Notes under the pieces: generated by a model | Told to the model about the DNA's origin: nothing | Database searches by the model: none | Seen by the model: only the letters and a program-made list of their open reading frames with translations | Translations under genes and position numbers: made by a program | Shown: positions 2,606 through 38,103 of the stretch, piece after piece | How the letters are laid out: each line of letters opens with the position of its first letter | How positions within the stretch are numbered: the first letter of the stretch is position 1 | Sequence record: MZ833439.1 | Origin: Enterobacteria phage AH67C600_Q5 | Direction: 5' to 3' (one strand) | DNA: 38,824 bases

Positions 2606-5257
2606 ATGAGCACGATTAACATCGCTAAGAACGATTTCTCTGACATCGAACTGGCTGCTATCCCGTTCAATACTCTGGCTGACCACTACGGTGAGCGCCT
2701 AGCTCGCGAGCAGTTGGCCCTTGAGCATGAGAGCTATGAAATGGGTGAAGCACGTTTCCGCAAGATGTTTGAGCGTCAACTCAAGGCCGGTGAGGTTGCA
2801 GACAATGCAGCTGCTAAACCGCTGATTACTACTCTGCTGCCCAAGATGGTTACACGCATCAACGACTGGTTTGAGGAAGTGAAAGCTAAGCGCGGCAAAC
2901 GTCCAACCGCTTTCCAGTTCCTGCAAGGAATCAAGCCGGAATCTGTAGCGTATATCACCATCAAGACTACCCTTGCTTGTCTGACGAGCGTTGACAATAC
3001 AACCGTTCAGGCTGTAGCAAGCGCCATCGGACGGGCTATCGAGGAAGAAGCTCGCTTCGGTCGAATCCGTGACCTAGAAGCTAAGCACTTCAAGAAAAAC
3101 GTTGAGGAACAACTAAACAAGCGCGTAGGGCACGTCTATAAGAAGGCATTCATGCAGGTAGTCGAGGCTGATATGCTCTCTAAGGGTCTACTAGGTGGCG
3201 AGGCGTGGTCTTCATGGCACAAGGAAGACTCCATTCACGTAGGTGTACGCTGCATTGAGATGCTCATTGAGTCCACCGGAATGGTTAGCCTGCACCGCCA
3301 AAATGCTGGCGTAGTGGGCCAAGACTCTGAGACTATCGAGCTGGCACACGAATACGCTGAGGCTATCGCAACCCGCGCTGGGGCACTGGCTGGCATCTCT
3401 CCGATGTATCAGCCTTGCATAGTCCCTCCTAAGCCTTGGACTGGTGTAACTGGTGGTGGCTACTGGGCCAACGGTCGCCGCCCTCTGGTACTGGTACGCA
3501 CTCACAGCAAGAAGGCACTGATGCGCTACGAAGATGTTTACATGCCTGAGGTATACAAGGCGATCAACATTGCGCAAAACACCGCTTGGAAAATCAACAA
3601 GAAAGTCCTAGCAGTAGCCAACGTGATAACCAAGTGGAAGCACTGCCCGGTCGAGGACATCCCTTCGATTGAGCGTGAAGAACTCCCGATGAAACCGGAA
3701 GACATCGACACGAATCCTGAGGCACTGACCGCTTGGAAACGTGCTGCTGCCGCTGTGTACCGTAAAGACAAGGCCCGTAAATCTCGCCGCATAAGCCTTG
3801 AGTTCATGCTTGAGCAAGCCAACAAGTTTGCTAACCGCAAGGCCATCTGGTTCCCTTACAACATGGACTGGCGTGGCCGTGTGTACGCTGTGTCAATGTT
3901 TAATCCGCAAGGTAACGACATGACCAAAGGACTGCTGACGCTGGCTAAAGGTAAACCAATCGGCAAGGAAGGATTCTACTGGCTGAAAATCCACGGTGCT
4001 AACTGCGCGGGGGTCGATAAGGTTCCATTCCCTGAGCGCATCAAGTTCATTGAGGACAACCACGATAATATCATGGCGTGCGCTAAGTCTCCTCTGGAGA
4101 ACACTTGGTGGGCTGAGCAAGATTCTCCGTTCTGCTTCCTCGCGTTCTGCTTTGAGTACGCTGGGGTACAGCACCACGGACTGAGCTACAACTGCTCGCT
4201 GCCACTGGCGTTCGATGGGTCTTGCTCTGGTATCCAGCACTTCTCCGCGATGCTCCGCGATGAGGTAGGTGGTCGTGCTGTTAACCTGCTTCCTAGCGAA
4301 ACCGTTCAGGACATCTACGGGATTGTTGCTAAGAAAGTAAACGAGATTCTGCAAGCGGATGCAATCAACGGGACCGATAACGAAGTAGTTACCGTGACCG
4401 ATGAGAACACTGGGGAAATCTCTGAGAAAGTCAAGCTGGGTACTAAAGCGTTGGCTGGTCAATGGTTGGCCTACGGTGTGACTCGCAGTGTCACTAAGCG
4501 TTCAGTCATGACGCTGGCATATGGTTCCAAAGAGTTCGGATTCCGTCAGCAAGTCCTTGAGGACACCATACAGCCCGCTATTGATTCCGGTAAGGGTCTG
4601 ATGTTCACACAACCCAATCAGGCCGCTGGGTACATGGCTAAGCTGATTTGGGAATCTGTGAGCGTTACCGTAGTGGCTGCTGTAGAGGCTATGAACTGGC
4701 TTAAGTCTGCTGCGAAACTGCTGGCTGCTGAGGTCAAAGACAAGAAGACTGGTGAGATTCTTCGCAAGCGTTGCGCGGTGTATTGGGTAACTCCTGATGG
4801 CTTCCCTGTGTGGCAGGAATACAAGAAGCCTATTCAGACTCGCTTGAACCTGATGTTCCTCGGTCAGTTCCGCTTGCAGCCGACCATAAACACCAACAAG
4901 GACAGCGAGATTGATGCCCATAAGCAGGAATCTGGTATAGCTCCTAACTTTGTACACAGCCAAGACGGTAGCCACCTACGCAAGACTGTAGTGTGGGCGC
5001 ATGAGAAGTACGGAATCGAATCTTTCGCACTGATTCATGACTCCTTCGGGACCATTCCGGCTGACGCTGCCAACCTCTTCAAAGCTGTTCGTGAAACAAT
5101 GGTTGACACCTACGAGTCCTGCGATGTACTTGCAGACTTCTACAACCAGTTCGCTGACCAGTTACATGAGTCTCAACTGGATAAAATGCCAGCACTTCCG
5201 GCTAAAGGTAACTTGAATTTACGAGACATCTTAGAGTCAGACTTCGCGTTTGCGTAA
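2606..5257 (+). CDS. 1: Single-subunit T7-type DNA-dependent RNA polymerase (gene 1)
   Basis: 883-aa ORF near-identical to T7 RNAP (MSTINIAKNDFSDIELAAIPFNTLADHYGERLAREQL... ending DFAFA). Confidence 0.98.
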   Translation: MSTINIAKNDFSDIELAAIPFNTLADHYGERLAREQLALEHESYEMGEARFRKMFERQLKAGEVADNAAAKPLITTLLPKMVTRINDWFEEVKAKRGKRPTAFQFLQGIKPESVAYITIKTTLACLTSVDNTTVQAVASAIGRAIEEEARFGRIRDLEAKHFKKNVEEQLNKRVGHVYKKAFMQVVEADMLSKGLLGGEAWSSWHKEDSIHVGVRCIEMLIESTGMVSLHRQNAGVVGQDSETIELAHEYAEAIATRAGALAGISPMYQPCIVPPKPWTGVTGGGYWANGRRPLVLVRTHSKKALMRYEDVYMPEVYKAINIAQNTAWKINKKVLAVANVITKWKHCPVEDIPSIEREELPMKPEDIDTNPEALTAWKRAAAAVYRKDKARKSRRISLEFMLEQANKFANRKAIWFPYNMDWRGRVYAVSMFNPQGNDMTKGLLTLAKGKPIGKEGFYWLKIHGANCAGVDKVPFPERIKFIEDNHDNIMACAKSPLENTWWAEQDSPFCFLAFCFEYAGVQHHGLSYNCSLPLAFDGSCSGIQHFSAMLRDEVGGRAVNLLPSETVQDIYGIVAKKVNEILQADAINGTDNEVVTVTDENTGEISEKVKLGTKALAGQWLAYGVTRSVTKRSVMTLAYGSKEFGFRQQVLEDTIQPAIDSGKGLMFTQPNQAAGYMAKLIWESVSVTVVAAVEAMNWLKSAAKLLAAEVKDKKTGEILRKRCAVYWVTPDGFPVWQEYKKPIQTRLNLMFLGQFRLQPTINTNKDSEIDAHKQESGIAPNFVHSQDGSHLRKTVVWAHEKYGIESFALIHDSFGTIPADAANLFKAVRETMVDTYESCDVLADFYNQFADQLHESQLDKMPALPAKGNLNLRDILESDFAFA

Positions 5258-5263
5258 CGTCAA

Positions 5264-5286
5264 ATTAATATCACTATAGGGAAGAC
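5264..5286 (+). promoter_or_regulatory. Damaged T7-promoter-like sequence at the phi1.1A/phi1.1B position (ttaata-tcactatagggaagac)
   Basis: Promoter-like 3' half tcactataggg preceded by ttaata but lacking the cgac of the -11 to -8 region; only one copy where T7 has two promoters flanking an RNase III site. Confidence 0.6.
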
Positions 5287-5362
5287 CTTAAGGTTTAACT
5301 TTAAGACCCTTAAGTGTTAATTAAAGATTTAAATTAAAGACTACTAATAGAGGACTTTAAGT

Positions 5363-5491
5363 ATGCGTAACTTCGAAAAGATGACCAAACGTTCTAACCG
5401 TAACGCTCATGACTTCGAGGCAACCAAGGGTCGTAAGTTGAATAAGACAAAGCGTGATCGCTCACATAAACGTAGCTGGGAGGGTCAGTAA
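5363..5491 (+). CDS. 1.1: gp1.1 small basic protein
   Basis: 42-codon ORF MRNFEKMTKRSNRNAHDFEATKGRKLNKTKRDRSHKRSWEGQ matching T7 gp1.1. Confidence 0.8.
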   Translation: MRNFEKMTKRSNRNAHDFEATKGRKLNKTKRDRSHKRSWEGQ

Positions 5492-5492
5492 G

Positions 5493-5741
5493 ATGGGTCG
5501 TTTATACAGTGGGAACCTGAATGACTTCAAGGCTGCAACAAATAAGCTGTTTGAGTTGGACCTTGCGGTAATATGTGATGACTCGCATGAAGACGATGGG
5601 TATATTCGAGTCCGCATCGAAGACAGAGATGGAAACATGATTGACGGCAGAGCATTCATTCATTACGATGAAGACGTCCTGTACTCTATGGGAACCGCTT
5701 GGTTGAACCATATGTACGACCAGTTGAAGGACTGGAAGTAA
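5493..5741 (+). CDS. 1.2: gp1.2, inhibitor of host dGTP triphosphohydrolase
   Basis: 82-aa ORF MGRLYSGNLNDFKAATNKLFELDLAV...WLNHMYDQLKDWK; termini match T7 gp1.2, central third diverged. Confidence 0.85.
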   Translation: MGRLYSGNLNDFKAATNKLFELDLAVICDDSHEDDGYIRVRIEDRDGNMIDGRAFIHYDEDVLYSMGTAWLNHMYDQLKDWK

Positions 5742-5761
5742 TACGACTCACTAAAGGGACA
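5739..5761 (+). promoter_or_regulatory. T7-RNAP class II promoter phi1.3 (taatacgactcactaaagggac)
   Basis: 23-mer with canonical -17..-1 core; overlaps the gene 1.2 stop codon. Confidence 0.8.
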
Positions 5762-5762
5762 A

Positions 5763-5800
5763 TGCTTAAGGTCGCTCTAATTGAGTGGCCTTAGTCATTT
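5763..5800 (+). promoter_or_regulatory. RNase III processing hairpin (R1.3-like)
   Basis: gcttaaggtcgctctaattgagtggccttagtcatt stem-loop signature. Confidence 0.65.
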
Positions 5801-5821
5801 AACCAATAGGAGATAAACATT

Positions 5822-6838
5822 ATGATGAACATTAAGACCAACCCGTTTAAAGCAACGTCTTTCGTAGAGTCTGCCATTAAGAAGGCTCTGGATAACGCTG
5901 GGTATCTTATTTGTGATGTAAAATATGACGGAGTTCGTGGTAACATTGTAGTTGACAATACCGCTAACAGTTGCTGGCTCTCTCGTGTATCTAAAACGAT
6001 TCCGGCACTGGAGCACCTAAACGGATTTGATGCGCGCTGGAAGCGTCTTCTGAATGATGACCGTTGCTTCTACAAAGATGGCTTTATGCTGGATGGGGAA
6101 CTAATGGTTAAGGGCGTAGACTTTAACACTGGGTCCGGCCTACTGCGCACCAAGTGGCTCAACAAGAAGAACTTTGAGTTCGACGTTGGAGGTGTACCAC
6201 CACTCAAGGGGTCCAAGGTTGAGTTCGCGTTGGACACCAAACGTCTGAGTGTCCGACTGTATGCTATCCTCCCGCTTCACGTTGTAGAGTCTGGAGAAGA
6301 CTGCGACATCATGACGCTGCTCATGCAGGAACACGTTAAGAACATGCTGCCTCTGCTACAGGAATACTTCCCTGAAATCGAATGGCAAGCGGCTGAGTCT
6401 TACGAGGTTTACGACATGGTGGAACTACAGCAACTGTATGAGAAGAAGCGTGAAGAAGGACATGAGGGTCTCATTGTGAAAGACCCAATGTGCATCTATA
6501 AGCGAGGCAAGAAGTCCGGCTGGTTCAAGCTCAAGCCTGAATGTGAGGCTGACGGTGTAATCCAAGGTGTCAACTGGGGTACTCCTGGTCTAGCCAACGA
6601 TGGCAAGGTAATTGGTTTTAGTGTGCTTCTTGAGACTGGTCGCCTTGTAGATGCCAATAACATCTCTCGCGCCTTAATGGATGAATTTACAGCTAACGTT
6701 AAGGAACACGGAGAGGACTTCTACAACGGACACGCTTGCCAGATTAGCTACATGGAGGAAACACCAGACGGCTCTCTGCGTCACCCATCGTTCGTGTGTT
6801 TCAGAGGAACTGAGGACAATCCTCAAGAGAAAATTTAA
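5822..6838 (+). CDS. 1.3: ATP-dependent DNA ligase (gene 1.3)
   Basis: 338-aa ORF MMNIKTNPFKA...KYDGVRGN (adenylation lysine motif)...; T7 ligase homolog, about 20 aa shorter than T7 as recalled. Confidence 0.93.
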   Translation: MMNIKTNPFKATSFVESAIKKALDNAGYLICDVKYDGVRGNIVVDNTANSCWLSRVSKTIPALEHLNGFDARWKRLLNDDRCFYKDGFMLDGELMVKGVDFNTGSGLLRTKWLNKKNFEFDVGGVPPLKGSKVEFALDTKRLSVRLYAILPLHVVESGEDCDIMTLLMQEHVKNMLPLLQEYFPEIEWQAAESYEVYDMVELQQLYEKKREEGHEGLIVKDPMCIYKRGKKSGWFKLKPECEADGVIQGVNWGTPGLANDGKVIGFSVLLETGRLVDANNISRALMDEFTANVKEHGEDFYNGHACQISYMEETPDGSLRHPSFVCFRGTEDNPQEKI

Positions 6839-9969: not shown

Positions 9970-9993
9970 TTAATTGATTGTTCGCAACATTGA

Positions 9994-11712
<1,719 letters not shown>

Positions 11713-11729
11713 AGGATACGTGACGATAT

Positions 11730-11752
11730 TAATACGACTCACTAAAGGAGAT
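11730..11752 (+). promoter_or_regulatory. T7-RNAP class II promoter phi4.3 (taatacgactcactaaaggagat)
   Basis: 23-mer promoter core 7 bp upstream of the HNH ORF at 11759. Confidence 0.8.
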
Positions 11753-11758
11753 AGCCAC

Positions 11759-12187
11759 ATGAGCACTGACTTAGAGAGACTTGAAAGATTCTTGAAGATT
11801 GATGGCGATTGCTGGCTGTTCACTGGTGGCAGGGCACATGCCTACGGAGTCTTCTGGATGGGCGGTAAGAATCACAAGGCACATAGGGCTGCCTTCGAAC
11901 TTTATAATGGGAGGAAACCTAATGGTGTTATATTACACTCTTGTGATAATCCTTTGTGCTGCAATCCCGCTCATCTATCTGAGGGAACTCAGCTTGATAA
12001 TATGGTGGACATGGTTAGAAAGGGACGCTCGTTAAAGGGTACGAAGAATCCCGCATGTAAGTTTACCGATGAGGATGTCAAGTTCATTCAGGAGTCTACC
12101 ATGAAGGTCAAAGATTTAGCCACTCTATTCGGAGTGACGCGCCAAACAATAACCAAATGGAGGAAACATCATGTTCAAACTGATTAA
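11759..12187 (+). CDS. HNH homing endonuclease between phi4.3 and gene 4.3
   Basis: 142 aa from ATG 11759 (MSTDLERLERFLKIDGDCWLF...HSCDNPLCCNPAHL...); the track ORF 11594..12187 is an artifactual N-terminal extension into gene 4. Confidence 0.85.
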   Translation: MSTDLERLERFLKIDGDCWLFTGGRAHAYGVFWMGGKNHKAHRAAFELYNGRKPNGVILHSCDNPLCCNPAHLSEGTQLDNMVDMVRKGRSLKGTKNPACKFTDEDVKFIQESTMKVKDLATLFGVTRQTITKWRKHHVQTD

Positions 12188-13170: not shown

Positions 13171-15129
13171 ATGATCGTTTCTGACATCGAAGCTAACGCC
13201 CTCTTAGAGAGCGTCACTAAGTTCCACTGCGGGGTTATCTACGACTACTCCACCGCTGAGTACGTAAGCTACCGTCCGAGTGACTTCGGTGCGTATCTGG
13301 ATGCGCTGGAAGCCGAGGTTGCACGAGGCGGTCTTATTGTGTTCCACAACGGTCACAAGTATGACGTTCCCGCATTGACCAAACTGGCTAAGTTGCAATT
13401 GAACCGAGAGTTCCACCTTCCTCGTGAGAACTGTATTGACACACTTGTGTTGTCACGCTTGATTCACTCCAACCTGAAAGACACCGATATGGGCCTGCTG
13501 CGTTCCGGTAAGTTGCCCGGTAAACGCTTTGGGTCTCACGCTTTGGAGGCGTGGGGCTATCGCTTAGGTGAGATGAAGGGTGAATACAAGGATGACTTTA
13601 AGCGTATGCTTGAAGAGCAAGGTGAAGAATACGTTGACGGAATGGAGTGGTGGAACTTCAACGAAGAGATGATGGCCTATAACGTTCAGGACGTTGTGGT
13701 CACTAAGGCTCTCCTTGAGAAGCTACTCTCTGATAAACATTACTTCCCTCCTGAGATTGACTTTACGGACGTAGGATACACTACGTTCTGGTCAGAATCC
13801 CTTGAGGCCGTTGATGTTGAACATCGCGCTGCGTGGCTACTCGCTAAGCAAGAGCGCAATGGATTCCCGTTTGACACGAAAGCAATCGAAGAGTTGTACG
13901 TAGAGTTAGCTGCCCGTCGCTCTGAGTTGCTACGTAAATTGACCGAAACGTTCGGCTCGTGGTATCAACCTAAGGGTGGTACAGAAATGTTCTGCCATCC
14001 GAGGACTGGTAAACCACTTCCCAAGTATCCTCGCATTAAGACACCTAAAGTTGGTGGTATCTTTAAGAAGCCTAAGAACAATGCACAGCGAGAAGGCAGA
14101 GAGCCTTGTGAACTGGATACCCGTGAATACGTTGCTGGTGCTCCGTATACTCCAGTAGAGCACGTAGTGTTTAACCCTTCGTCTCGTGACCACATCCAGA
14201 AGAAACTCCAAGAGGCTGGATGGGTCCCAACCAAGTACACCGATAAGGGTGCTCCTGTGGTGGACGATGAGGTACTCGAAGGAGTACGTGTAGACGACCC
14301 TGAGAAGCAAGCTGCTATCGACCTCATTAAAGAGTACCTGATGATTCAGAAGAGAATCGGTCAGTCTGCTGAGGGAGACAAGGCGTGGCTTCGTTACGTT
14401 GCCGAGGACGGTAAGATTCATGGTTCTGTTAACCCTAATGGAGCAGTTACGGGTCGTGCTACCCATGCGTTCCCCAACCTTGCGCAAATTCCGGGTGTAC
14501 GTTCTCCTTATGGTGAGCAGTGCCGCGCTGCTTTTGGCGCTGAACATCACTTAGATGGACTTACAGGTAAGCCTTGGGTTCAGGCTGGTATAGACGCCTC
14601 CGGTCTGGAGTTACGTTGCTTGGCCCACTTCATGGCTCGCTTTGATAACGGTGAGTATGCTCACGAGATTCTTAATGGTGACATTCACACTAAGAATCAG
14701 ATAGCTGCCGAATTGCCTACCCGTGATAACGCCAAGACGTTCATCTATGGGTTCCTTTATGGTGCTGGTGATGAGAAGATTGGGCAGATTGTTGGTGCTG
14801 GTAAAGAGCGCGGTAAGGAACTCAAGAAGAAATTCCTTGAGAACACCCCTGCGATTGCGGCACTCCGAGAGTCTATCCAACAGACACTCGTTGAGTCATC
14901 TCAGTGGGTAGCTGGTGAACAGCAAGTCAAGTGGAAACGCCGCTGGATTAAAGGACTTGATGGGCGCAAAGTCCATGTCCGTAGTCCTCATGCTGCCCTG
15001 AACACCTTGCTGCAATCTGCTGGTGCTCTTATCTGCAAACTGTGGATTATCAAGACCGAAGAGATGCTCTTAGAGAAAGGCTTGAAGCATGGCTGGGATG
15101 GGGACTTTGCGTACATGGCATGGGTGCAT
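13171..15129 (+). CDS. 5: DNA polymerase (gene 5) exon 1, codons 1-653
   Basis: Family A polymerase near-identical to T7 gp5 up to ...[11 protein letters not shown], then leaves the T7 reading frame; the uninterrupted ORF stops 8 codons later at 15153. Confidence 0.95.
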
Positions 15130-15730
15130 AAACTATCTCATTGTGCACATTAAATCTGGTGAACTCGGTGAAACCCTTCTAGGGCAATACCGAGCCAAGC
15201 CATAGGGAGGATATATGAGAGGCAAGAAGTTAATCCTTGCGACCACAGAGAGTGGTTGTATCATCCCTACGTCACACAAACTTAATACTGATGGTTATTT
15301 CCGAAAGAAGACGAACGGTGTCCTAGAGATGTATCACAGGACAGTCTGGAAGGAACACTACGGAGATATACCAGAAGGGTATGAAGTAGACCACAAGTGT
15401 AGGAACAGGGCGTGCTGTAACGTAGAGCACCTCCAGTTATTAGAAGGTTCTGAGCATACAGTCAAGACAAACAGGGAACGATACGCTGACCGTAAAGATT
15501 CCGCGAAGGAATACTGGTTGGAGACTGGATGTACAGGAACACACTTAGGTGAGAAGTTTGGTGTAACGTTCTCTGCCGCTTGTAAGTGGATTAGAGAGTG
15601 GAAGGCGTAGAGACTATCCGAAAGGAGTAGGGCCGAGGGTGAGATTCCCTCGTTACCCGAAGCGCCAGACAGTCAACTCAAAGGCTGATGATATAGTCCG
15701 ACACTCCTAGCAATAGGAGAATACAGAAAG
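15130..15730 (+). mobile_element. Group I self-splicing intron interrupting gene 5, carrying an HNH ORF
   Basis: 601-bp interruption between codons His653 and Asp654; exon 1 ends in U (15129); candidate internal guide gtgcac at 15143-15148 can pair with exon end gugcau including a U-G wobble at the splice site; intron ends in G (15730); exons join in frame to a 704-aa product. Confidence 0.85.
15215..15610 (+). CDS. Intron-encoded HNH homing endonuclease
   Basis: 131-aa ORF with RBS gggagg upstream; motifs EVDHKCRNRACCNVEHL typical of HNH endonucleases; lies entirely inside the intron. Confidence 0.85.
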   Translation: MRGKKLILATTESGCIIPTSHKLNTDGYFRKKTNGVLEMYHRTVWKEHYGDIPEGYEVDHKCRNRACCNVEHLQLLEGSEHTVKTNRERYADRKDSAKEYWLETGCTGTHLGEKFGVTFSAACKWIREWKA

Positions 15731-15886
15731 GATGAGATTCAGGTAGGTTGTCGTACCGAAGAGATTGCTCAGGTGGTCATTGAGACTGCACAAGAGGCGA
15801 TGCGCTGGGTGGGAGACCACTGGAACTTCAGGTGTCTTCTGGATACCGAAGGTAAGATGGGTCCTAACTGGGCCGTATGTCACTAA
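15731..15886 (+). CDS. 5: DNA polymerase (gene 5) exon 2, codons 654-704
   Basis: DEIQVGCRTEEIAQVVIETAQEAMRWVGDHWNFRCLLDTEGKMGPNWAVCH*, matching the T7 gp5 C-terminus. Confidence 0.93.
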   Translation, partial: DEIQVGCRTEEIAQVVIETAQEAMRWVGDHWNFRCLLDTEGKMGPNWAVCH

Positions 15887-17562: not shown

Positions 17563-17600
17563 TAAACTCAAGGTCCAGGGGCCTTTATGATTATTACTTT
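17563..17600 (+). promoter_or_regulatory. RNase III processing hairpin (R6.5-like); no promoter present
   Basis: aaactcaaggtccaggggcctttatgattattac stem-loop signature; no T7 promoter core in the loop or nearby. Confidence 0.65.
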
Positions 17601-18559: not shown

Positions 18560-18826
18560 ATGGGTAAGAAAATTAAGAAGGCCGTTAAGAAAGTCGTTAA
18601 GGAAGTGGCTCGTCCGATTAAACAGGTTGCTGGTGGCATTGCCGGTCTGGCTGGCGGGCAAGTATTGGAAGTTCCACAGGCTGCTGCACAGATTGTTGAC
18701 GCGCCTGAGAAAGAGGTTTCCACTGAGGACGAAGCACAGACCGAAAGCGGACGTAAGAAAGCTCGCGCTGGTGGTAAGAAGTCATTAAGTGTGGCTCGTA
18801 GCTCAGGTGGGGGTATAAATATATGA
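18560..18826 (+). CDS. 7.3: gp7.3 tail-associated protein
   Basis: 88-aa Lys/Ala-rich ORF MGKKIKKAVKKVVKEVARPIKQVAGGIAGLAGG... Confidence 0.85.
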   Translation: MGKKIKKAVKKVVKEVARPIKQVAGGIAGLAGGQVLEVPQAAAQIVDAPEKEVSTEDEAQTESGRKKARAGGKKSLSVARSSGGGINI

Positions 18827-19218
18827 CAGATTGTATCGAGTGGACTGGCTACCTCACAAAAGATGGGTACGGCGAAACTCGACTGAATGGTGTCAAGTTT
18901 AGGGTTCATCGTCTAGAATGGGTGAAACAAAGAGGCCCAATACCTGAAGGTCTAGTTGTTCGCCATAAGTGCGATAACCCTAAATGTTACAATATCGAAC
19001 ACCTTGAGCTAGGAACAACTCAGGATAACACTAGAGATAGGGTCTTGAGGAATAGAAGCGCAAAGGGAGTACGTAATGGTAATTCCAAATTAACACCCGA
19101 TGTCGTTCTGGCAATACGTGCAAGTAGTAAGACCCACAAGCTGATAGCCGAAGAGTTCGGTGTATCCAAATCAGTTGTGACACAGATACGAGCACGTAAG
19201 ACATGGAGGCATATCTAA
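18823..19218 (+). CDS. 7.7: HNH homing endonuclease (T7 gene 7.7 position)
   Basis: 131-aa ORF with HKCDNPKCYNIEHL motif and C-terminal HTH-like region. Confidence 0.85.
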   Translation: MTDCIEWTGYLTKDGYGETRLNGVKFRVHRLEWVKQRGPIPEGLVVRHKCDNPKCYNIEHLELGTTQDNTRDRVLRNRSAKGVRNGNSKLTPDVVLAIRASSKTHKLIAEEFGVSKSVVTQIRARKTWRHI

Positions 19219-20901: not shown

Positions 20902-21816
20902 ATGGCTGAATCTAATGCAGACGTATATGCATCTTTTGGTGTGAACTCCGCTGTGATGTCTGGTGGTTCCGTTGAGGAACATGAGCAGAACATGCTGGCT
21001 CTTGATGTTGCTGCCCGTGATGGCGATGATGCAATCGAGTTAGCGTCCGACGAAGTGGAAACAGAACGCGACCTGTATGACAACTCTGACCCGTTCGGTC
21101 AAGAGGATGATGAGGGACGCATTCAGGTTCGTATTGGTGATGGCTCTGAGCCGACCGATGTGGATACTGGAGAAGAAGTCGCTGAGGGCACAGAGGAGTT
21201 TACCCCGCTGGGCGAGACTCCAGAAGAACTGGTAGCTGCCTCTGAGCAACTTGGTGAGCACGAAGAGGGCTTCCAAGAGATGATTAACATTGCTGCCGAG
21301 CGCGGTATGAGTGCTGAGACCATTGAGGCAATCCAGCGTGAGTACGAGGAGAACGAAGAGTTATCCGATGCGTCATACGCTAAGCTGGCTGAAATTGGCT
21401 ACACTAAGGCTTTCATCGACTCGTACATTCGCGGTCAAGAAGCTCTGGTGGAGCAGTACGTCAACAGTATCGTTGAGTACGCTGGTGGTCGTGAGCGTTT
21501 TGATGCGCTGTACAGTCACCTTGAGACTCACAACCCTGAGGCTGCACAATCGCTGGACAACGCGTTGACGAATCGCGACTTAGCGACCGTTAAGGCCATC
21601 ATCAACTTGGCTGGTGAGTCTCGTGCTAAGGCGTTCGGTCGTAAGCCAACTCGTAGTGTAACCAGTCGAGCTATTCCGGCTAAACCTCAAGCTACTAAGC
21701 GTGAAGGGTTTGCTGACCGTAGCGAGATGATTAAGGCTATGAGTGACCCTCGGTATCGCACTGATGCAAACTATCGCCGTCAAGTCGAACAGAAAGTTAT
21801 CGACTCGAACTTCTGA
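20902..21816 (+). CDS. 9: Capsid assembly scaffold protein (gene 9)
   Basis: 304-aa acidic ORF MAESNADVYASFGVNSAVMSGGSVEEHEQNMLALD..., T7 gp9 homolog. Confidence 0.95.
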   Translation: MAESNADVYASFGVNSAVMSGGSVEEHEQNMLALDVAARDGDDAIELASDEVETERDLYDNSDPFGQEDDEGRIQVRIGDGSEPTDVDTGEEVAEGTEEFTPLGETPEELVAASEQLGEHEEGFQEMINIAAERGMSAETIEAIQREYEENEELSDASYAKLAEIGYTKAFIDSYIRGQEALVEQYVNSIVEYAGGRERFDALYSHLETHNPEAAQSLDNALTNRDLATVKAIINLAGESRAKAFGRKPTRSVTSRAIPAKPQATKREGFADRSEMIKAMSDPRYRTDANYRRQVEQKVIDSNF

Positions 21817-21817
21817 T

Positions 21818-22168
21818 AGACTCTCAACTTGCCGGATTCATCCAATGAGAACATTACTGGCCTTGGGTCCGCATCGGTCATTGAGACTACTCAGGCTAAG
21901 ACTCGCTGGAACCTCTCGCGCTAATACCGATGGTCAGAAACATGGCTTCCCAGAAGGCGTTGGCGGTAACAACAAGGTGGCTAAAATCAACGTTATCGGC
22001 CTGTTCATGCACCGCTCTGCGGTTGGTACTGTGAAACTGCGTGACTTGGCTCTGGAGCGCGCTCGCCGTGCTAACTTCCAAGCTGACCAGATTATCGCTA
22101 AGTACGCAATGGGCCACGGTGGTCTGCGCCCAGAAGCTGCTGGTGCAGTGGTTTTCAAAGCGGGGTAA
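21818..22168 (+). pseudogene. 10: Remnant of the major capsid protein gene (gene 10): about 115 of about 345 codons, in two different frames
   Basis: In the frame from 21820, NENITGLGSASVIETTQAK resembles T7 gp10 NENIEGLGTATVIETTQNK and then hits a stop at 21919-21921; in the +1 frame, [87 protein letters not shown] matches the gp10 C-terminus. No N-terminal half, no start codon, no RBS, no promoter. Confidence 0.85.
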
Positions 22169-22284
22169 TGCATGAAGTGACCTCAACGGTCGCTGCTAGT
22201 ACCGAAGAGGTAAGCATTACTGCCGAAGAGAGTCTAACTCCAGCACAAAAAGCTGCACGTACACGCTTTAATGGGAGGAACTAT

Positions 22285-25329: not shown

Positions 25330-25755
25330 ATGATGACTATAAGACCTACTAAAAGTACAGACTTAGAGGTATTCACTCCGGCTCACCATGACATTCTTGA
25401 AGCTAAGGCTGCTGGTATTGAGCCGAGTTTCCCTGATGCTTCCGAGTGTGTCACGTTGAGCCTCTATGGGTTCCCTCTAGCTATCGGTGGTAACTGCGGG
25501 GGCCAGTGCTGGTTCGTTACGAGCGACCAAGTGTGGCGACTTAGTGGAAAAGCTAAGCGAGAGTTCCGTAAGTTAATCATGGAGTATCGTGATAAGATGC
25601 TTGAGAAGTATGATACTCTTTGGAATTACGTATGGGTAGGTAATACGTCCCACATTCGTTTCCTCAAGACTATCGGTGCGGTATTCCATGAAGAGTACAC
25701 ACGCGATGGTCAGTTTCAGTTATTTACAATAAATAGGAGGACTCAGTATGGCTAG
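25330..25755 (+). CDS. 13: gp13 internal virion protein
   Basis: 141-aa ORF MMTIRPTKSTDLEVFTPAHHDILEAKAAGIEPSF... Confidence 0.9.
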   Translation: MMTIRPTKSTDLEVFTPAHHDILEAKAAGIEPSFPDASECVTLSLYGFPLAIGGNCGGQCWFVTSDQVWRLSGKAKREFRKLIMEYRDKMLEKYDTLWNYVWVGNTSHIRFLKTIGAVFHEEYTRDGQFQLFTINRRTQYG

Positions 25756-26062
25756 AGACAAAGCTAAGAAAGCGGCTTATGACAAGGCTCGCTACAATCC
25801 CCGCGCTAACAAGGACAGACACCTTAGGCGCTCGTATGGGATAACCATAGAAGATTATGATAAAATGTTTGAGTCACAAGGCGGAGCATGTGCCATTTGC
25901 GGTCGCCCTGAAACAGCCAAAGGTCGCTCATTAGCAGTAGATCATTCTCATGATACTGGCGAGGTACGTGGACTTCTGTGTCACGCCTGTAATACCTCCA
26001 TTGGTAAGTTTAGGGAGAACCGTGAGTGGCTTCTTAAAGCTATCAAATATATAGGAGGTTAA
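25748..26062 (+). CDS. HNH endonuclease of the Endonuclease VII-like type, inserted between genes 13 and 14
   Basis: 104-aa ORF with CAICGRPE...AVDHSHDTGEVRGLLCHACNTSIG, the Cys-pair/DH/HxxN pattern of Endo VII-family HNH nucleases; overlaps the gene 13 stop. Confidence 0.8.
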   Translation: MARDKAKKAAYDKARYNPRANKDRHLRRSYGITIEDYDKMFESQGGACAICGRPETAKGRSLAVDHSHDTGEVRGLLCHACNTSIGKFRENREWLLKAIKYIGG

Positions 26063-32934: not shown

Positions 32935-34611
32935 ATGGATAACGTAATTAAAACCGTTTTGACTTACCAGTTAGATGGCTCCACTCGTGATTTTAATATC
33001 CCGTTTGAGTATCTAGCCCGTAAGTTCGTAGTGGTAACTCTTATTGGTGTAGACCGTAAGGTCCTTACGCTTAATACAGACTATCGCTTTGCTACACGTA
33101 CTACCATCTCACTGACGAAGGCTTGGGGTCCAGCCGATGGCTACACGACCATCGAGTTACGCCGAGTAACCCCCACGACCGACCGCTTGGTTGACTTTAC
33201 GGACGGCTCAATCCTCCGTGCGTATGACCTTAACGTTGCTCAGATTCAAACGATGCACGTAGCGGAGGAGGCGCGTGACCTGACTGCGGATACCATCGGT
33301 GTCAATAATGATGGTCATTTGGATGCCCGTGGTCGTCGAATTGTGAACCTAGCGAACGCTGTAGATGCCCGTGACGCTGTTCCGTTTGGCCAACTTAAGA
33401 CCATGAACCAGAACTCGTGGCAGGCTCGTAATGAGGCACTACAGTTCCGCAATGAGGCTGAGACTTTCAGAAACCAAGCGGAGGGCTTTAAGAACGAGTC
33501 CAGCACCAACGCTACTAACACAAAGCACTGGCGAGATGAGGTTAATAGGTTCCGAGATGAAGCAGAGCAGTTCAAGAATACGGCTGGTCAATATGCGACA
33601 TCTGCTGGGAACTCTGCTACTGCTGCGCATCAATCTGAGGTAAACGCTGAGAACTCCGCTACAGCCTCCGCTAACTCTGCGCATTTGGCAGAACAACACG
33701 CAGACCGTGCGGAACGCGAAGCAGACAAGCTGGGGAATTTTAACGGACTAGCTGGCGCAATTGACAGGGTGGATGGAACCAATGTGTACTGGAAAGGAGG
33801 TATCCATGCGAACGGACGACTTTACCTTACCTCAGATGGTTTCGACTGTGGTCAGTATCAACAGTTCTTTGGCGGTTCTACTAGTCGTTACTCTGTCATG
33901 GAGTGGGGTGATGAGAACGGATGGCTGATGTATGTTCAACGTAGAGGGTGGACAACAGCGATAGGTGATAACATCCAGCTAGTAGTAAACGGACATATCA
34001 TCGCCCAAGGTGGAGAAATGACTGGTCCGCTGAAATTGCAGAATGGACATGCCCTTTACTTAGAGTCCGCATCCGACAAGGCGCAATATATTCTATCTAA
34101 AGATGGTAACAGAAACAACTGGTACATTGGTAGAGGATCAGATAACAACAATGACTGTACCTTCCACTCCTATGTGTATGGTACGAACTTAACACTCAAG
34201 CAGGACTATGCAGTAGTTAACAAACACTTCCACGTAGGTCAGGCCGTTGTGTCCACTGATGGTAATATTCAAGGTACTAAGTGGGGAGGTAAGGGGCTTG
34301 ATGTTTACCTAAACGATACTTACGTTAAGAAGACAATGGCTTGGACTCAAGTATGGGCTGCTGATAGTGGTAAGTACATGCCAGGAGGTTCTCAGACTGA
34401 TACTCTCCCACAGGACTTGCGATTCCGCAACATATGGATTAAGACCAGAAACAACTATTGGAACTTCTTCCGAACTGGTCCTGACGGTATCTACTACCTT
34501 TCAGCCGAGGGCGGTTGGCTAAAATTCCAGATACACTCTAATGGCAGGGTATTTAAGAACATAGCTGATAGAGATGCGCCTCCAACAGCAATAGCCGTAG
34601 AGGACGTGTAA
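32935..34611 (+). CDS. 17: Tail fiber protein (gene 17)
   Basis: 558-aa ORF; N-terminal 150 aa near-identical to T7 gp17 (MDNVIKTVLTYQLDGSTRDFNIPFEYLARKFVVVTLIG...), C-terminal tip diverged. Confidence 0.95.
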   Translation: MDNVIKTVLTYQLDGSTRDFNIPFEYLARKFVVVTLIGVDRKVLTLNTDYRFATRTTISLTKAWGPADGYTTIELRRVTPTTDRLVDFTDGSILRAYDLNVAQIQTMHVAEEARDLTADTIGVNNDGHLDARGRRIVNLANAVDARDAVPFGQLKTMNQNSWQARNEALQFRNEAETFRNQAEGFKNESSTNATNTKHWRDEVNRFRDEAEQFKNTAGQYATSAGNSATAAHQSEVNAENSATASANSAHLAEQHADRAEREADKLGNFNGLAGAIDRVDGTNVYWKGGIHANGRLYLTSDGFDCGQYQQFFGGSTSRYSVMEWGDENGWLMYVQRRGWTTAIGDNIQLVVNGHIIAQGGEMTGPLKLQNGHALYLESASDKAQYILSKDGNRNNWYIGRGSDNNNDCTFHSYVYGTNLTLKQDYAVVNKHFHVGQAVVSTDGNIQGTKWGGKGLDVYLNDTYVKKTMAWTQVWAADSGKYMPGGSQTDTLPQDLRFRNIWIKTRNNYWNFFRTGPDGIYYLSAEGGWLKFQIHSNGRVFKNIADRDAPPTAIAVEDV

Positions 34612-34669
34612 TGAGCATCAAAGGAACTACTTTAAGTCCACGGATGGACTATCACACTAAGGAGGACAC

Positions 34670-37458: not shown

Positions 37459-37495
37459 TTTATGAGGCCAAGGAAGGCCGCTTTAAGGAGGTAAT

Positions 37496-37939
37496 ATGAT
37501 AAGCAAGAAGAAGTATGTTATCGATAAGGAGACTGGTTGCTGGAACTTTAGGGGATGTAAGACGAAGACTGGTTATGGTCGCATTCGTGTGAACGGAGTC
37601 CATTGGATGGCCCACAGGTATTCCCTGAGTTGTCATCTAGGCAGACCGATAGCTGACGGAATGGTTGTGATGCACCTATGTGATAATCCTTCATGTGTTA
37701 ACCCTGAGCACCTTAAGGAAGGGACTCAGAAGGAGAACATAGAGGACTGCATCTCAAAAGGTCGTGCAACTAAGTCCACAGGTAAACGTGATGCAACTAA
37801 GAGAGACCCTAGCGAGGAACGTAAGGCTATAGTGATTCGAAGATACCATAAAGGCTGGACCGCAACGTCCATAGCGAGATACCATAAGCTCTCTGTGGCG
37901 TGGGTAAAGAGGGTCATTGAGGATTACCTAAGTGATTGA
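37496..37939 (+). CDS. HNH homing endonuclease between gene 19 and phiOR
   Basis: 147-aa ORF with RBS aaggagg; MHLCDNPSCVNPEHL motif and C-terminal HTH-like region; paralog of the 8665, 11759 and 18823 ORFs. Confidence 0.85.
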   Translation: MISKKKYVIDKETGCWNFRGCKTKTGYGRIRVNGVHWMAHRYSLSCHLGRPIADGMVVMHLCDNPSCVNPEHLKEGTQKENIEDCISKGRATKSTGKRDATKRDPSEERKAIVIRRYHKGWTATSIARYHKLSVAWVKRVIEDYLSD

Positions 37940-37990
37940 TATTTGAAATTAGTGATACAGGTCTAAGTATATGATTACAGACCATTATTC

Positions 37991-38013
37991 TAATTCGACT
38001 CACTATAGGGAGA
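37991..38013 (+). promoter_or_regulatory. T7-RNAP promoter phiOR-like (taattcgactcactatagggaga)
   Basis: Only remaining 23-mer with the full class III-type tatagggaga 3' half; carries T instead of A at -13. Confidence 0.8.
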
Positions 38014-38103
38014 AGCCTACCTAAAGATTACTATAAGACTTAAAGTTACCTATAAGGTAGGTTGTTATTATTGTTAATACAACCAACATAAAGGAGGAGA
38101 CTC

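Follow-up and report, generated by a model that had tools for sequence, protein, structure and literature searches.

The divergent centre of gp1.2 in Enterobacteria phage AH67C600_Q5 probably reflects weak constraint within an old, recombining allele

How does a small anti-host protein come to have conserved ends and a divergent middle? The question is raised by gene 1.2 of Enterobacteria phage AH67C600_Q5 (record MZ833439.1), of which we analyzed a stretch of 38,824 nucleotides, here called the window. The window as a whole belongs to Teseptimavirus and is ~91 to 92% identical to EG1, HZ2R8, T7 and similar phages. According to a preliminary description, its gp1.2, an inhibitor of the host dGTP triphosphohydrolase (Dgt), has T7-like N- and C-terminal thirds around a replaced central segment, which makes the protein a mosaic whose specificity for Dgt may differ.

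The segment from 5493 to 5741 on the plus strand is gene 1.2, which encodes the T7-family Dgt inhibitor gp1.2 and lies, as in T7, between genes 1.1 and 1.3. The assignment is based on the ORF and its translation, the Pfam profile PF10922, matches in the PDB, and synteny. The ORF extends from an ATG (5493 to 5495) to a TAA (5739 to 5741), comprises 82 codons plus the stop codon, and is translated as MGRLYSGNLNDFKAATNKLFELDLAVICDDSHEDDGYIRVRIEDRDGNMIDGRAFIHYDEDVLYSMGTAWLNHMYDQLKDWK. Family membership could be read directly from the profile of T7-like gene 1.2 (PF10922; 125.2 bits, with a cut-off of 22; E = 1.3e-36), which was matched over its full length, with residues 1 to 82 corresponding to profile positions 1 to 85. 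The T7 Gp1.2 entries 2MDP and 7U65 of the PDB were also matched over the full length (E ~5e-33).

The gene order around gene 1.2 (1.1 - 1.2 - 1.3) is that of T7, and the annotated relatives agree. The phage RNA polymerase gene (2606 to 5257) precedes gene 1.1 (5363 to 5491, plus strand; 42 aa; PF08200, E = 1.7e-15), while a 338-aa ORF on the 3' side (5822 to 6838) aligns with the DNA ligase (gene 1.3) annotated in the relatives. The stop codon of gene 1.1 (5489 to 5491) is followed by one base and then by the start of gene 1.2; the spacing is equal in T7, where gene 1.1 ends at 1499 and gene 1.2 begins at 1501 (locus positions). Read from the sequence, a Shine-Dalgarno-like GGAGG (5479 to 5483, plus strand) is present 9 nt 5' of the ATG. 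At the other end, a φ1.3-type T7 RNA polymerase promoter-like site, TAATACGACTCACTAAAGGGACA (5739 to 5761, plus strand), with two mismatches to the consensus, overlaps the gene 1.2 stop codon; the chance expectation of such matches was 0. An Rfam scan of 5200 to 5900 on both strands (E ≤ 1) gave no match and no sign of an embedded structured RNA, and antisense ORFs of 42 to 69 aa inside gene 1.2 were without support.

At the amino acid level, alignment with T7 gp1.2 bore out the description of T7-like terminal thirds and a substantially different centre. Identity was 24/27 over residues 1 to 27 and 19/23 at the C terminus (T7 residues 63 to 85); in the centre (T7 residues 28 to 62), 16 of 35 positions were identical, including one 3-residue gap. 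Overall identity was 69%, and the differences were concentrated in the centre (19/35 vs 7/50; Fisher P = 1e-4). The central peptide quoted previously, ICDDSHEDDGYIRVRIEDRDGNMIDGRAFIHY, corresponds to residues 27 to 58. On the plus strand, codons 1 to 27 (5493 to 5573) encode the N-terminal plug (G2, R3, Y5, S6, and G7) and helix α1 (F12 and K13), i.e., the face that binds Dgt in T7; codons 28 to 58 (5574 to 5666), the flagged centre, encode the end of β1, the β1-β2 loop, β2, a turn, and β3, and are the hypervariable part of the family; codons 59 to 82 (5667 to 5738) encode the DEDVL motif and helix α2 (60 to 78 in the model described below), with D59, L63, and L78 invariant in the family sample. 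The window protein is three residues shorter than T7 Gp1.2, and the alignments place the missing codons in the β1-β2 loop, between 5603 and 5604 on the plus strand, where the 85-aa alleles have RKD (T7) or RQG (C2).

The word "replaced" overstates this difference. A column-by-column alignment of the centre with T7 is still possible, and the elements DD, IR.RIEDR.GN.ID, and F.H.DEDVL are kept. An AlphaFold2 (AF2) model built on 65 family sequences (pLDDT 85.4) predicted a helix at 6 to 21, strands at 25 to 29, 37 to 43, and 49 to 56, and a helix at 60 to 78 (α-β3-α), i.e., two helices on a three-stranded antiparallel sheet, as expected for a T7-like gp1.2. Confidence was lowest at the β1-β2 loop (pLDDT 74 for residues 31 to 40), in which residues 30 to 36 have no regular secondary structure. 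In direct comparison by Foldseek, the model superposed on the Dgt-bound T7 Gp1.2 chains 7U65_G and 7U66_G with a TM score of 0.90 to 0.91 and an rmsd of 1.4 to 1.7 Å. Judged by the model, the centre is homologous to the T7 centre, and its fold is kept. A replacement by foreign or unrelated sequence was ruled out by the 16/35 identity, the single gap, the conserved core positions, and the same strands.

Structures of T7 Gp1.2 are available for the free protein and for the complex with the E. coli Dgt hexamer (Klemm et al. 2022, PMC9478638; complexes 7U65, 7U66, and 7U67 in the PDB). The N terminus of T7 Gp1.2 (G2, R3) enters the Dgt active site, and dGTP or GTP is held in a noncatalytic manner; Y5, S6, G7, A10, and V65 touch Dgt monomer A, and F12, K13, and Y28 engage R436 and F437 of monomer E through cation-π contacts, which gives ten contact residues (PMC9478638). 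The noncontact parts hang into the solvent, and loops that are disordered by NMR stay disordered when bound, with the exception of the ordered α1-β1 loop (PMC9478638). In the window protein, eight of the ten contacts are identical to T7, including F12, K13, and V62 (the equivalent of V65); the changed ones, A10N and Y28C, are peripheral in the T7 Gp1.2-Dgt interface. The plug residues G2-R3 and Y5-S6-G7 were invariant or found in at least 95% of 65 family representatives. From these residues, we infer that the window allele would inhibit Dgt by the same mechanism as T7 Gp1.2. Since Dgt R436 loses one of its two aromatic stacking partners through Y28C, and A10N changes a van der Waals contact, the affinity could be somewhat different.

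Could the altered centre, then, retune gp1.2 for binding another or a variant host Dgt and shift the host-target specificity? Y28 is located at the N-terminal edge of the centre, where in the T7 complex it stacks on R436 of Dgt; the window has Cys at this position. Moreover, the hosts on which phages with the window allele or the sister allele were isolated comprise E. coli, Yersinia enterocolitica, and Salmonella. However, Y28 is the only one of the ten contacts that falls within the flagged centre; the other nine are outside, and the remainder of the segment faces the solvent (PMC9478638). Tyr28 itself was found in just 3 of the 65 family representatives sampled, and the window residues N10 (58/65) and C28 (24/65) are each the commonest residue at their position. 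Furthermore, the phages isolated on E. coli carry at least four distinct central cassettes (those of T7, HZ2R8/EG1, C5, and HZP2), which argues that all of these are compatible with one host Dgt, and the identical 82-aa cassette of the window is found in phages of two host genera (E. coli and Y. enterocolitica). A changed Dgt specificity is thus not indicated, and we regard retuning of this kind as very unlikely.

Central variability was found to be a property of the whole gp1.2 family and not of this phage. The family sample consisted of 65 cluster representatives from a search of 5.8 billion proteins and is biased toward relatives sharing 5-mers with the query. In this sample, the columns of window residues 28 to 37 and the three columns deleted in the window had no majority residue. 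Column entropy over residues 28 to 58 was mostly 1.3 to 2.8 bits and near zero at the IEDR.G columns and at H57, and it was mostly below 1 bit in the N-terminal columns. Single-linkage clustering of the representatives separated the centre into 14 or more types at 65% identity and gave, for the N terminus at 80% identity, one dominant type. Among the cassettes are the T7 type (DDWYDAYTRKDC), the C2 type (DDLYEDNGHRQG), the VVEQEGSPNIK type of HZ2R8 and EG1 (VVEQEGSPNIKAT), and the window type, which is DDSHEDDGY together with the 3-codon deletion. In β2, I38, V40, and I42 stay hydrophobic (M/L/I/V) among the 65 representatives and positions 39 and 41 vary, an alternation expected for a sheet with one buried and one exposed face.

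The constraint pattern was directly apparent from substitution rates. In the window's clade of 14 sequences, dN/dS was 0.06 for the N terminus, 0.48 for the centre, and 0.35 for the C terminus, which points to a relaxation of constraint in the centre; pervasive positive selection there was rejected on the clade-wide value of 0.48. The counts of nonsynonymous and synonymous changes differed between N terminus and centre in comparison to C2 (Fisher P = 0.0016) and to RPN15 (P = 0.0003). For the centre, these single pairs gave dN/dS values of 0.75 (C2) and 1.42 (RPN15), calculated from small counts (3 to 5 synonymous vs 16 to 17 nonsynonymous changes). Such values are compatible with a few positively selected central sites; these would not be expected under pure drift.

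The DNA alignment gave a different picture of the boundaries than the protein alignment. A max-chi-square scan of the window-T7 alignment over 5300 to 5890 directly delimited a divergent block at 5513 to 5698 (plus strand), corresponding to approximately codons 7 to 69 and also visible in the sliding identity and in the difference map. There were 59 differences in 186 nt inside the block (32%) vs 25 in 405 nt outside (6%), and none of 200 permutations reached the observed max-chi-square value. Only 5699 to 5741, the last ~14 codons, is T7-like at the nucleotide level, with one difference. In codons 1 to 27, pS to T7 was 0.66 (12 of ~18 synonymous sites), pN was 0.10, and dN/dS was 0.06; in the centre, pS was 0.74 and pN was 0.29, and dN/dS was not computable because of saturated pS. 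Since synonymous sites are near saturation in codons 1 to 27, the N-terminal protein match to T7 reflects constraint and not recent shared ancestry: purifying selection on the Dgt-binding face keeps these amino acids fixed, and the N-terminal third and the centre belong to one old, divergent allele.

Thus, a mosaic patch does exist, but it spans almost the entire gene, and the protein cannot be described as T7 ends spliced around a new middle. Of the mosaic claim, the part that stands is a localized divergent patch of the kind produced by allele exchange; its limits are not near codons 27 and 60. Breakpoints flanking the centre were not found, as the block reaches from about codon 7 to about codon 69, with dense differences from 5513 on. 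Likewise, the idea that both ends share recent T7 ancestry failed at the 5' end, where pS (0.66) is close to that of the centre (0.74). A strictly intragenic event, in which recombination swapped just codons ~27 to 60 and left T7-derived ends, would account for the amino acid identity pattern (24/27, 16/35, 19/23), and intragenic reshuffling is known in the family: the representative P0017 combines a different N-terminal type with a C2-type centre, and one central type is found with three C-terminal types. Nevertheless, such an event is contradicted at its 5' boundary, both by the statistically best block and by a synonymous divergence in codons 1 to 27 that is as high as in the centre, vs ~6% nucleotide divergence in the flanks. 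Furthermore, N-terminal and central types were coinherited in 13 of the 14 sequences of the window's clade. We consider this explanation extremely improbable.

Low-identity patches are frequent in the window: about 16 regions are below 75% identity to T7, with a median of 92% (unaligned bases counted as mismatches), and the gene 1.2 block, at 70% identity, belongs to the lowest 12% of 200-nt intervals compared with T7. The ligase gene 1.3 is also patchy. Its segment 5900 to 5950 is ~68 to 78% identical to all eleven relatives compared, and 6150 to 6250 is ~96 to 100% identical to WX1 and EG1 and 42 to 78% identical to the other nine.

The 82-aa allele is already known: it is present in GenBank with the annotation of a dGTPase inhibitor. 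Direct comparison of the proteins found it in Escherichia phage HZP2 (97.6% aa identity), in the Y. enterocolitica phages vB_YenP_WX1 and vB_YenP_WX2 (92.7%), and in Escherichia phage PGX1 (91.5%), with two to seven amino acid differences from the window protein, as well as in the metagenomic clusters P0001 to P0003, of which P0002 has 24 member sequences. The HZP2 protein (QBI89976.1, annotated "inhibitor of dGTPase") has the same deletion and the same central cassette in the same gene order; it differs at two C-terminal positions, G67A and H73R, and the nucleotide identity over 5500 to 5650 is ~100%. An IMG/VR scan with the window gp1.2 yielded 11 loci, of which none surpassed the HZP2 record in similarity.

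Among the 85-aa forms, the nearest one, the sister allele, is found in the Salmonella phages C2 and vB_SAg-RPN15 and in a dozen metagenomic clusters, and its central cassette is CDDLYEDNGHRQG. Overall identity to the window is 78 to 83%. The N-terminal 27 residues are identical to the window in C2 and differ at one position in RPN15, while the 3-codon deletion is absent and ~12 subclade-specific substitutions are present in the centre. The 82-aa form thus looks derived from a C2-type 85-aa form or from a common ancestor. RPN15 is a T3-like Teetrevirus; its gene 1.2 (1501 to 1758 of its locus) is 80 to 94% identical to the window at the nucleotide level vs 58 to 70% in the flanks, and therefore the allele has moved between genera.

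Escherichia phage EG1 has two tandem copies of gene 1.2 (locus L009, 1501 to 1767 and 1767 to 2039). The first belongs to the T7 clade and has the VEQEGSPNIK cassette, and the second is of the T3/Berlinvirus type, 80% identical to the PifA-resistant allele of JeanTinguely; therefore, one phage holds both allele classes. In several relatives, including metagenomic contigs that carry P0002, an HNH homing endonuclease gene is located directly between gene 1.2 and the ligase gene (555 to 971 in locus L027, 369 to 785 in L028, 1794 to 2231 in L031, and 1784 to 2197 in L034); it is absent in the window. Coconversion during homing could help to spread gene 1.2 alleles.

We therefore favor, with a probability of roughly 0.78, the reading that the window carries a functional, ordinary gp1.2 allele with a weakly constrained scaffold centre, and that this allele is old and recombining. 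By homology to the T7 complex, the processed N terminus (G2-R3) would insert into the Dgt active site, and Y5, S6, and G7 together with helix α1 (F12, K13) would wedge between two Dgt monomers. The wedged protein would hold dGTP or GTP in a noncatalytic pose, and dGTP would be saved for phage DNA replication. The centre, a predicted three-stranded β sheet with its loops, would serve as a scaffold mostly facing the solvent in the complex. Because it is largely solvent facing, it would be weakly constrained and would drift and acquire indels across the family, with core-facing hydrophobic residues staying hydrophobic. The N-terminal third would look T7-like because strong purifying selection fixes its amino acids, and approximately codons 7 to 69 would represent an old divergent allele passed among T7- and T3-like phages by recombination.

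Selection by host immunity could act on top of this scaffold reading. The gp1.2 allele correlates with sensitivity to PifA, the F-exclusion factor of the F plasmid, in phages including those of the BASEL collection (PMC8594841, PMC11990801). T7, JacobBurckhardt (Bas65), and MeretOppenheim (Bas102) are sensitive, and the Teseptimavirus JeanTinguely (Bas64), which has a Berlinvirus-like gp1.2 allele, is resistant; according to the authors, the picture is more complex than two alleles at one locus (PMC8594841, PMC11990801). In addition, coexpression of T7 gp1.2 and ApeA reduced cell growth, and gp1.2 was suggested as the trigger (preprint, PMC11482910). With the three sensitive alleles, the window protein has 65 to 72% identity, and with the resistant type 37%. 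The T3/Berlinvirus-type proteins (T3, JeanTinguely Bas64, and the second copy of EG1) belong to the same family and have the N-terminal motif MGR(L/I)YSGNL in common with it, reading MGRIYSGN in T3 and MGRLYSGN in the window and T7. They are 90 to 92 aa long, 37 to 38% identical to the window, and different along the whole length; they are annotated as dGTPase inhibitor and F-exclusion determinant, and the class is associated with PifA resistance (PMC8594841, PMC11990801). T7 Gp1.2, by comparison, shares with the window protein the Pfam family, the genome position, the predicted fold, and an identical MGRLYSGN plug.

One could therefore propose that abortive-infection sensors recognizing gp1.2 (PifA, possibly ApeA) select for the central variability, with the cassette setting the triggering and Dgt inhibition unchanged. 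The correlation of PifA sensitivity with the allele and the slowed growth with ApeA would fit this proposal, as would the concentration of variability away from the Dgt face and the single-pair central dN/dS of up to 0.75 to 1.4. The three sensitive alleles also have one cassette type in common, (C/Y)D(D/E)WYD(A/T)Y(K/T)R, which is missing from the window, where the sequence is CDDSHEDDGY; the PifA phenotype is not predictable from this difference. However, the clade-wide central dN/dS of 0.48 speaks against pervasive positive selection, and the resistant alleles differ from the window over the whole length rather than just centrally. Moreover, the sensors may detect a consequence of Dgt inhibition instead of the gp1.2 surface. 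We consider selection by such sensors rather unlikely as the source of the variability. A related, equally tentative and on balance doubtful proposal from the sequence pattern is that the exposed sheet and loop form an immune-recognition surface, of which the 82-aa short-loop cassette would be an escape form with full Dgt inhibition.

As a discovery, the locus carries little weight: the anti-host protein is well understood, this allele of it is known and annotated, and both the allelic diversity of gp1.2 and the suggested link to PifA are already published. If cassettes govern recognition by PifA or ApeA, the T7, C2, 82-aa, and VVEQEGSPNIK types would be a ready-made series for mapping the recognition surface. 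The methodological use of the locus is that conserved ends and a divergent middle in a small anti-host protein can result from differential constraint on an old allele, and that synonymous sites distinguish this from a splice.

Several other features of the window depart from T7. The major capsid gene 10 is mostly absent at 21817 to 22170, directly after the end of gene 9 at 21816. The φ10 promoter, the ribosome-binding site, and gp10A codons 1 to 146 and 172 to 267 have no counterpart in the window, and tblastn with T7 gp10A detected just residues 147 to 171 (21826 to 21900, 64%) and 268 to 343 (21935 to 22159, 91%). None of the other unaligned regions of the window is large enough for a capsid gene. 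Furthermore, no class III consensus promoter is left: besides the loss of φ10, the promoters φ6.5, φ9, φ13, and φ17 are cleanly excised in comparison to T7 and HZP2, with 26 to 31 nt missing at each; the junctions are near 17576/17577, 20824/20825, 25303/25304, and 32884/32885, and the flanks are ~95% identical to T7 up to the junctions. Four sites with at most three mismatches to the T7 promoter consensus were found in the window (138, 5739, 7895, and 37991). HZP2 keeps φ6.5, φ9, φ10, and φ13 and the full capsid gene; its partial record stops before φ17.

At 5258 to 5290, ~80 nt from φ1.1A to φ1.1B are missing, and one shortened promoter-like site, TAATATCACTATAGGGAAGA, remains. This region is the primary replication origin in T7, and T7, C2, and HZP2 have both promoters. 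The junction is out of register and therefore was not generated by simple promoter-to-promoter recombination. Together, the missing promoters and gene 10 look like a processing artifact (e.g., removal of T7 promoter and gene 10 sequences as vector-like matches) or like an engineered or defective genome. The conclusions on gene 1.2 are unaffected, because the allele is corroborated by independent records.

Stretches without a blastn counterpart in T7 were located at 9977 to 10185, 11726 to 12163, 15129 to 15731, 18822 to 19195, 25741 to 26053, 34356 to 34617, and 37464 to 38082; some of them may have been inserted, for example as homing endonuclease genes. Near 12000 to 12160, the sequence stands in place of the φ4.3 region of T7.
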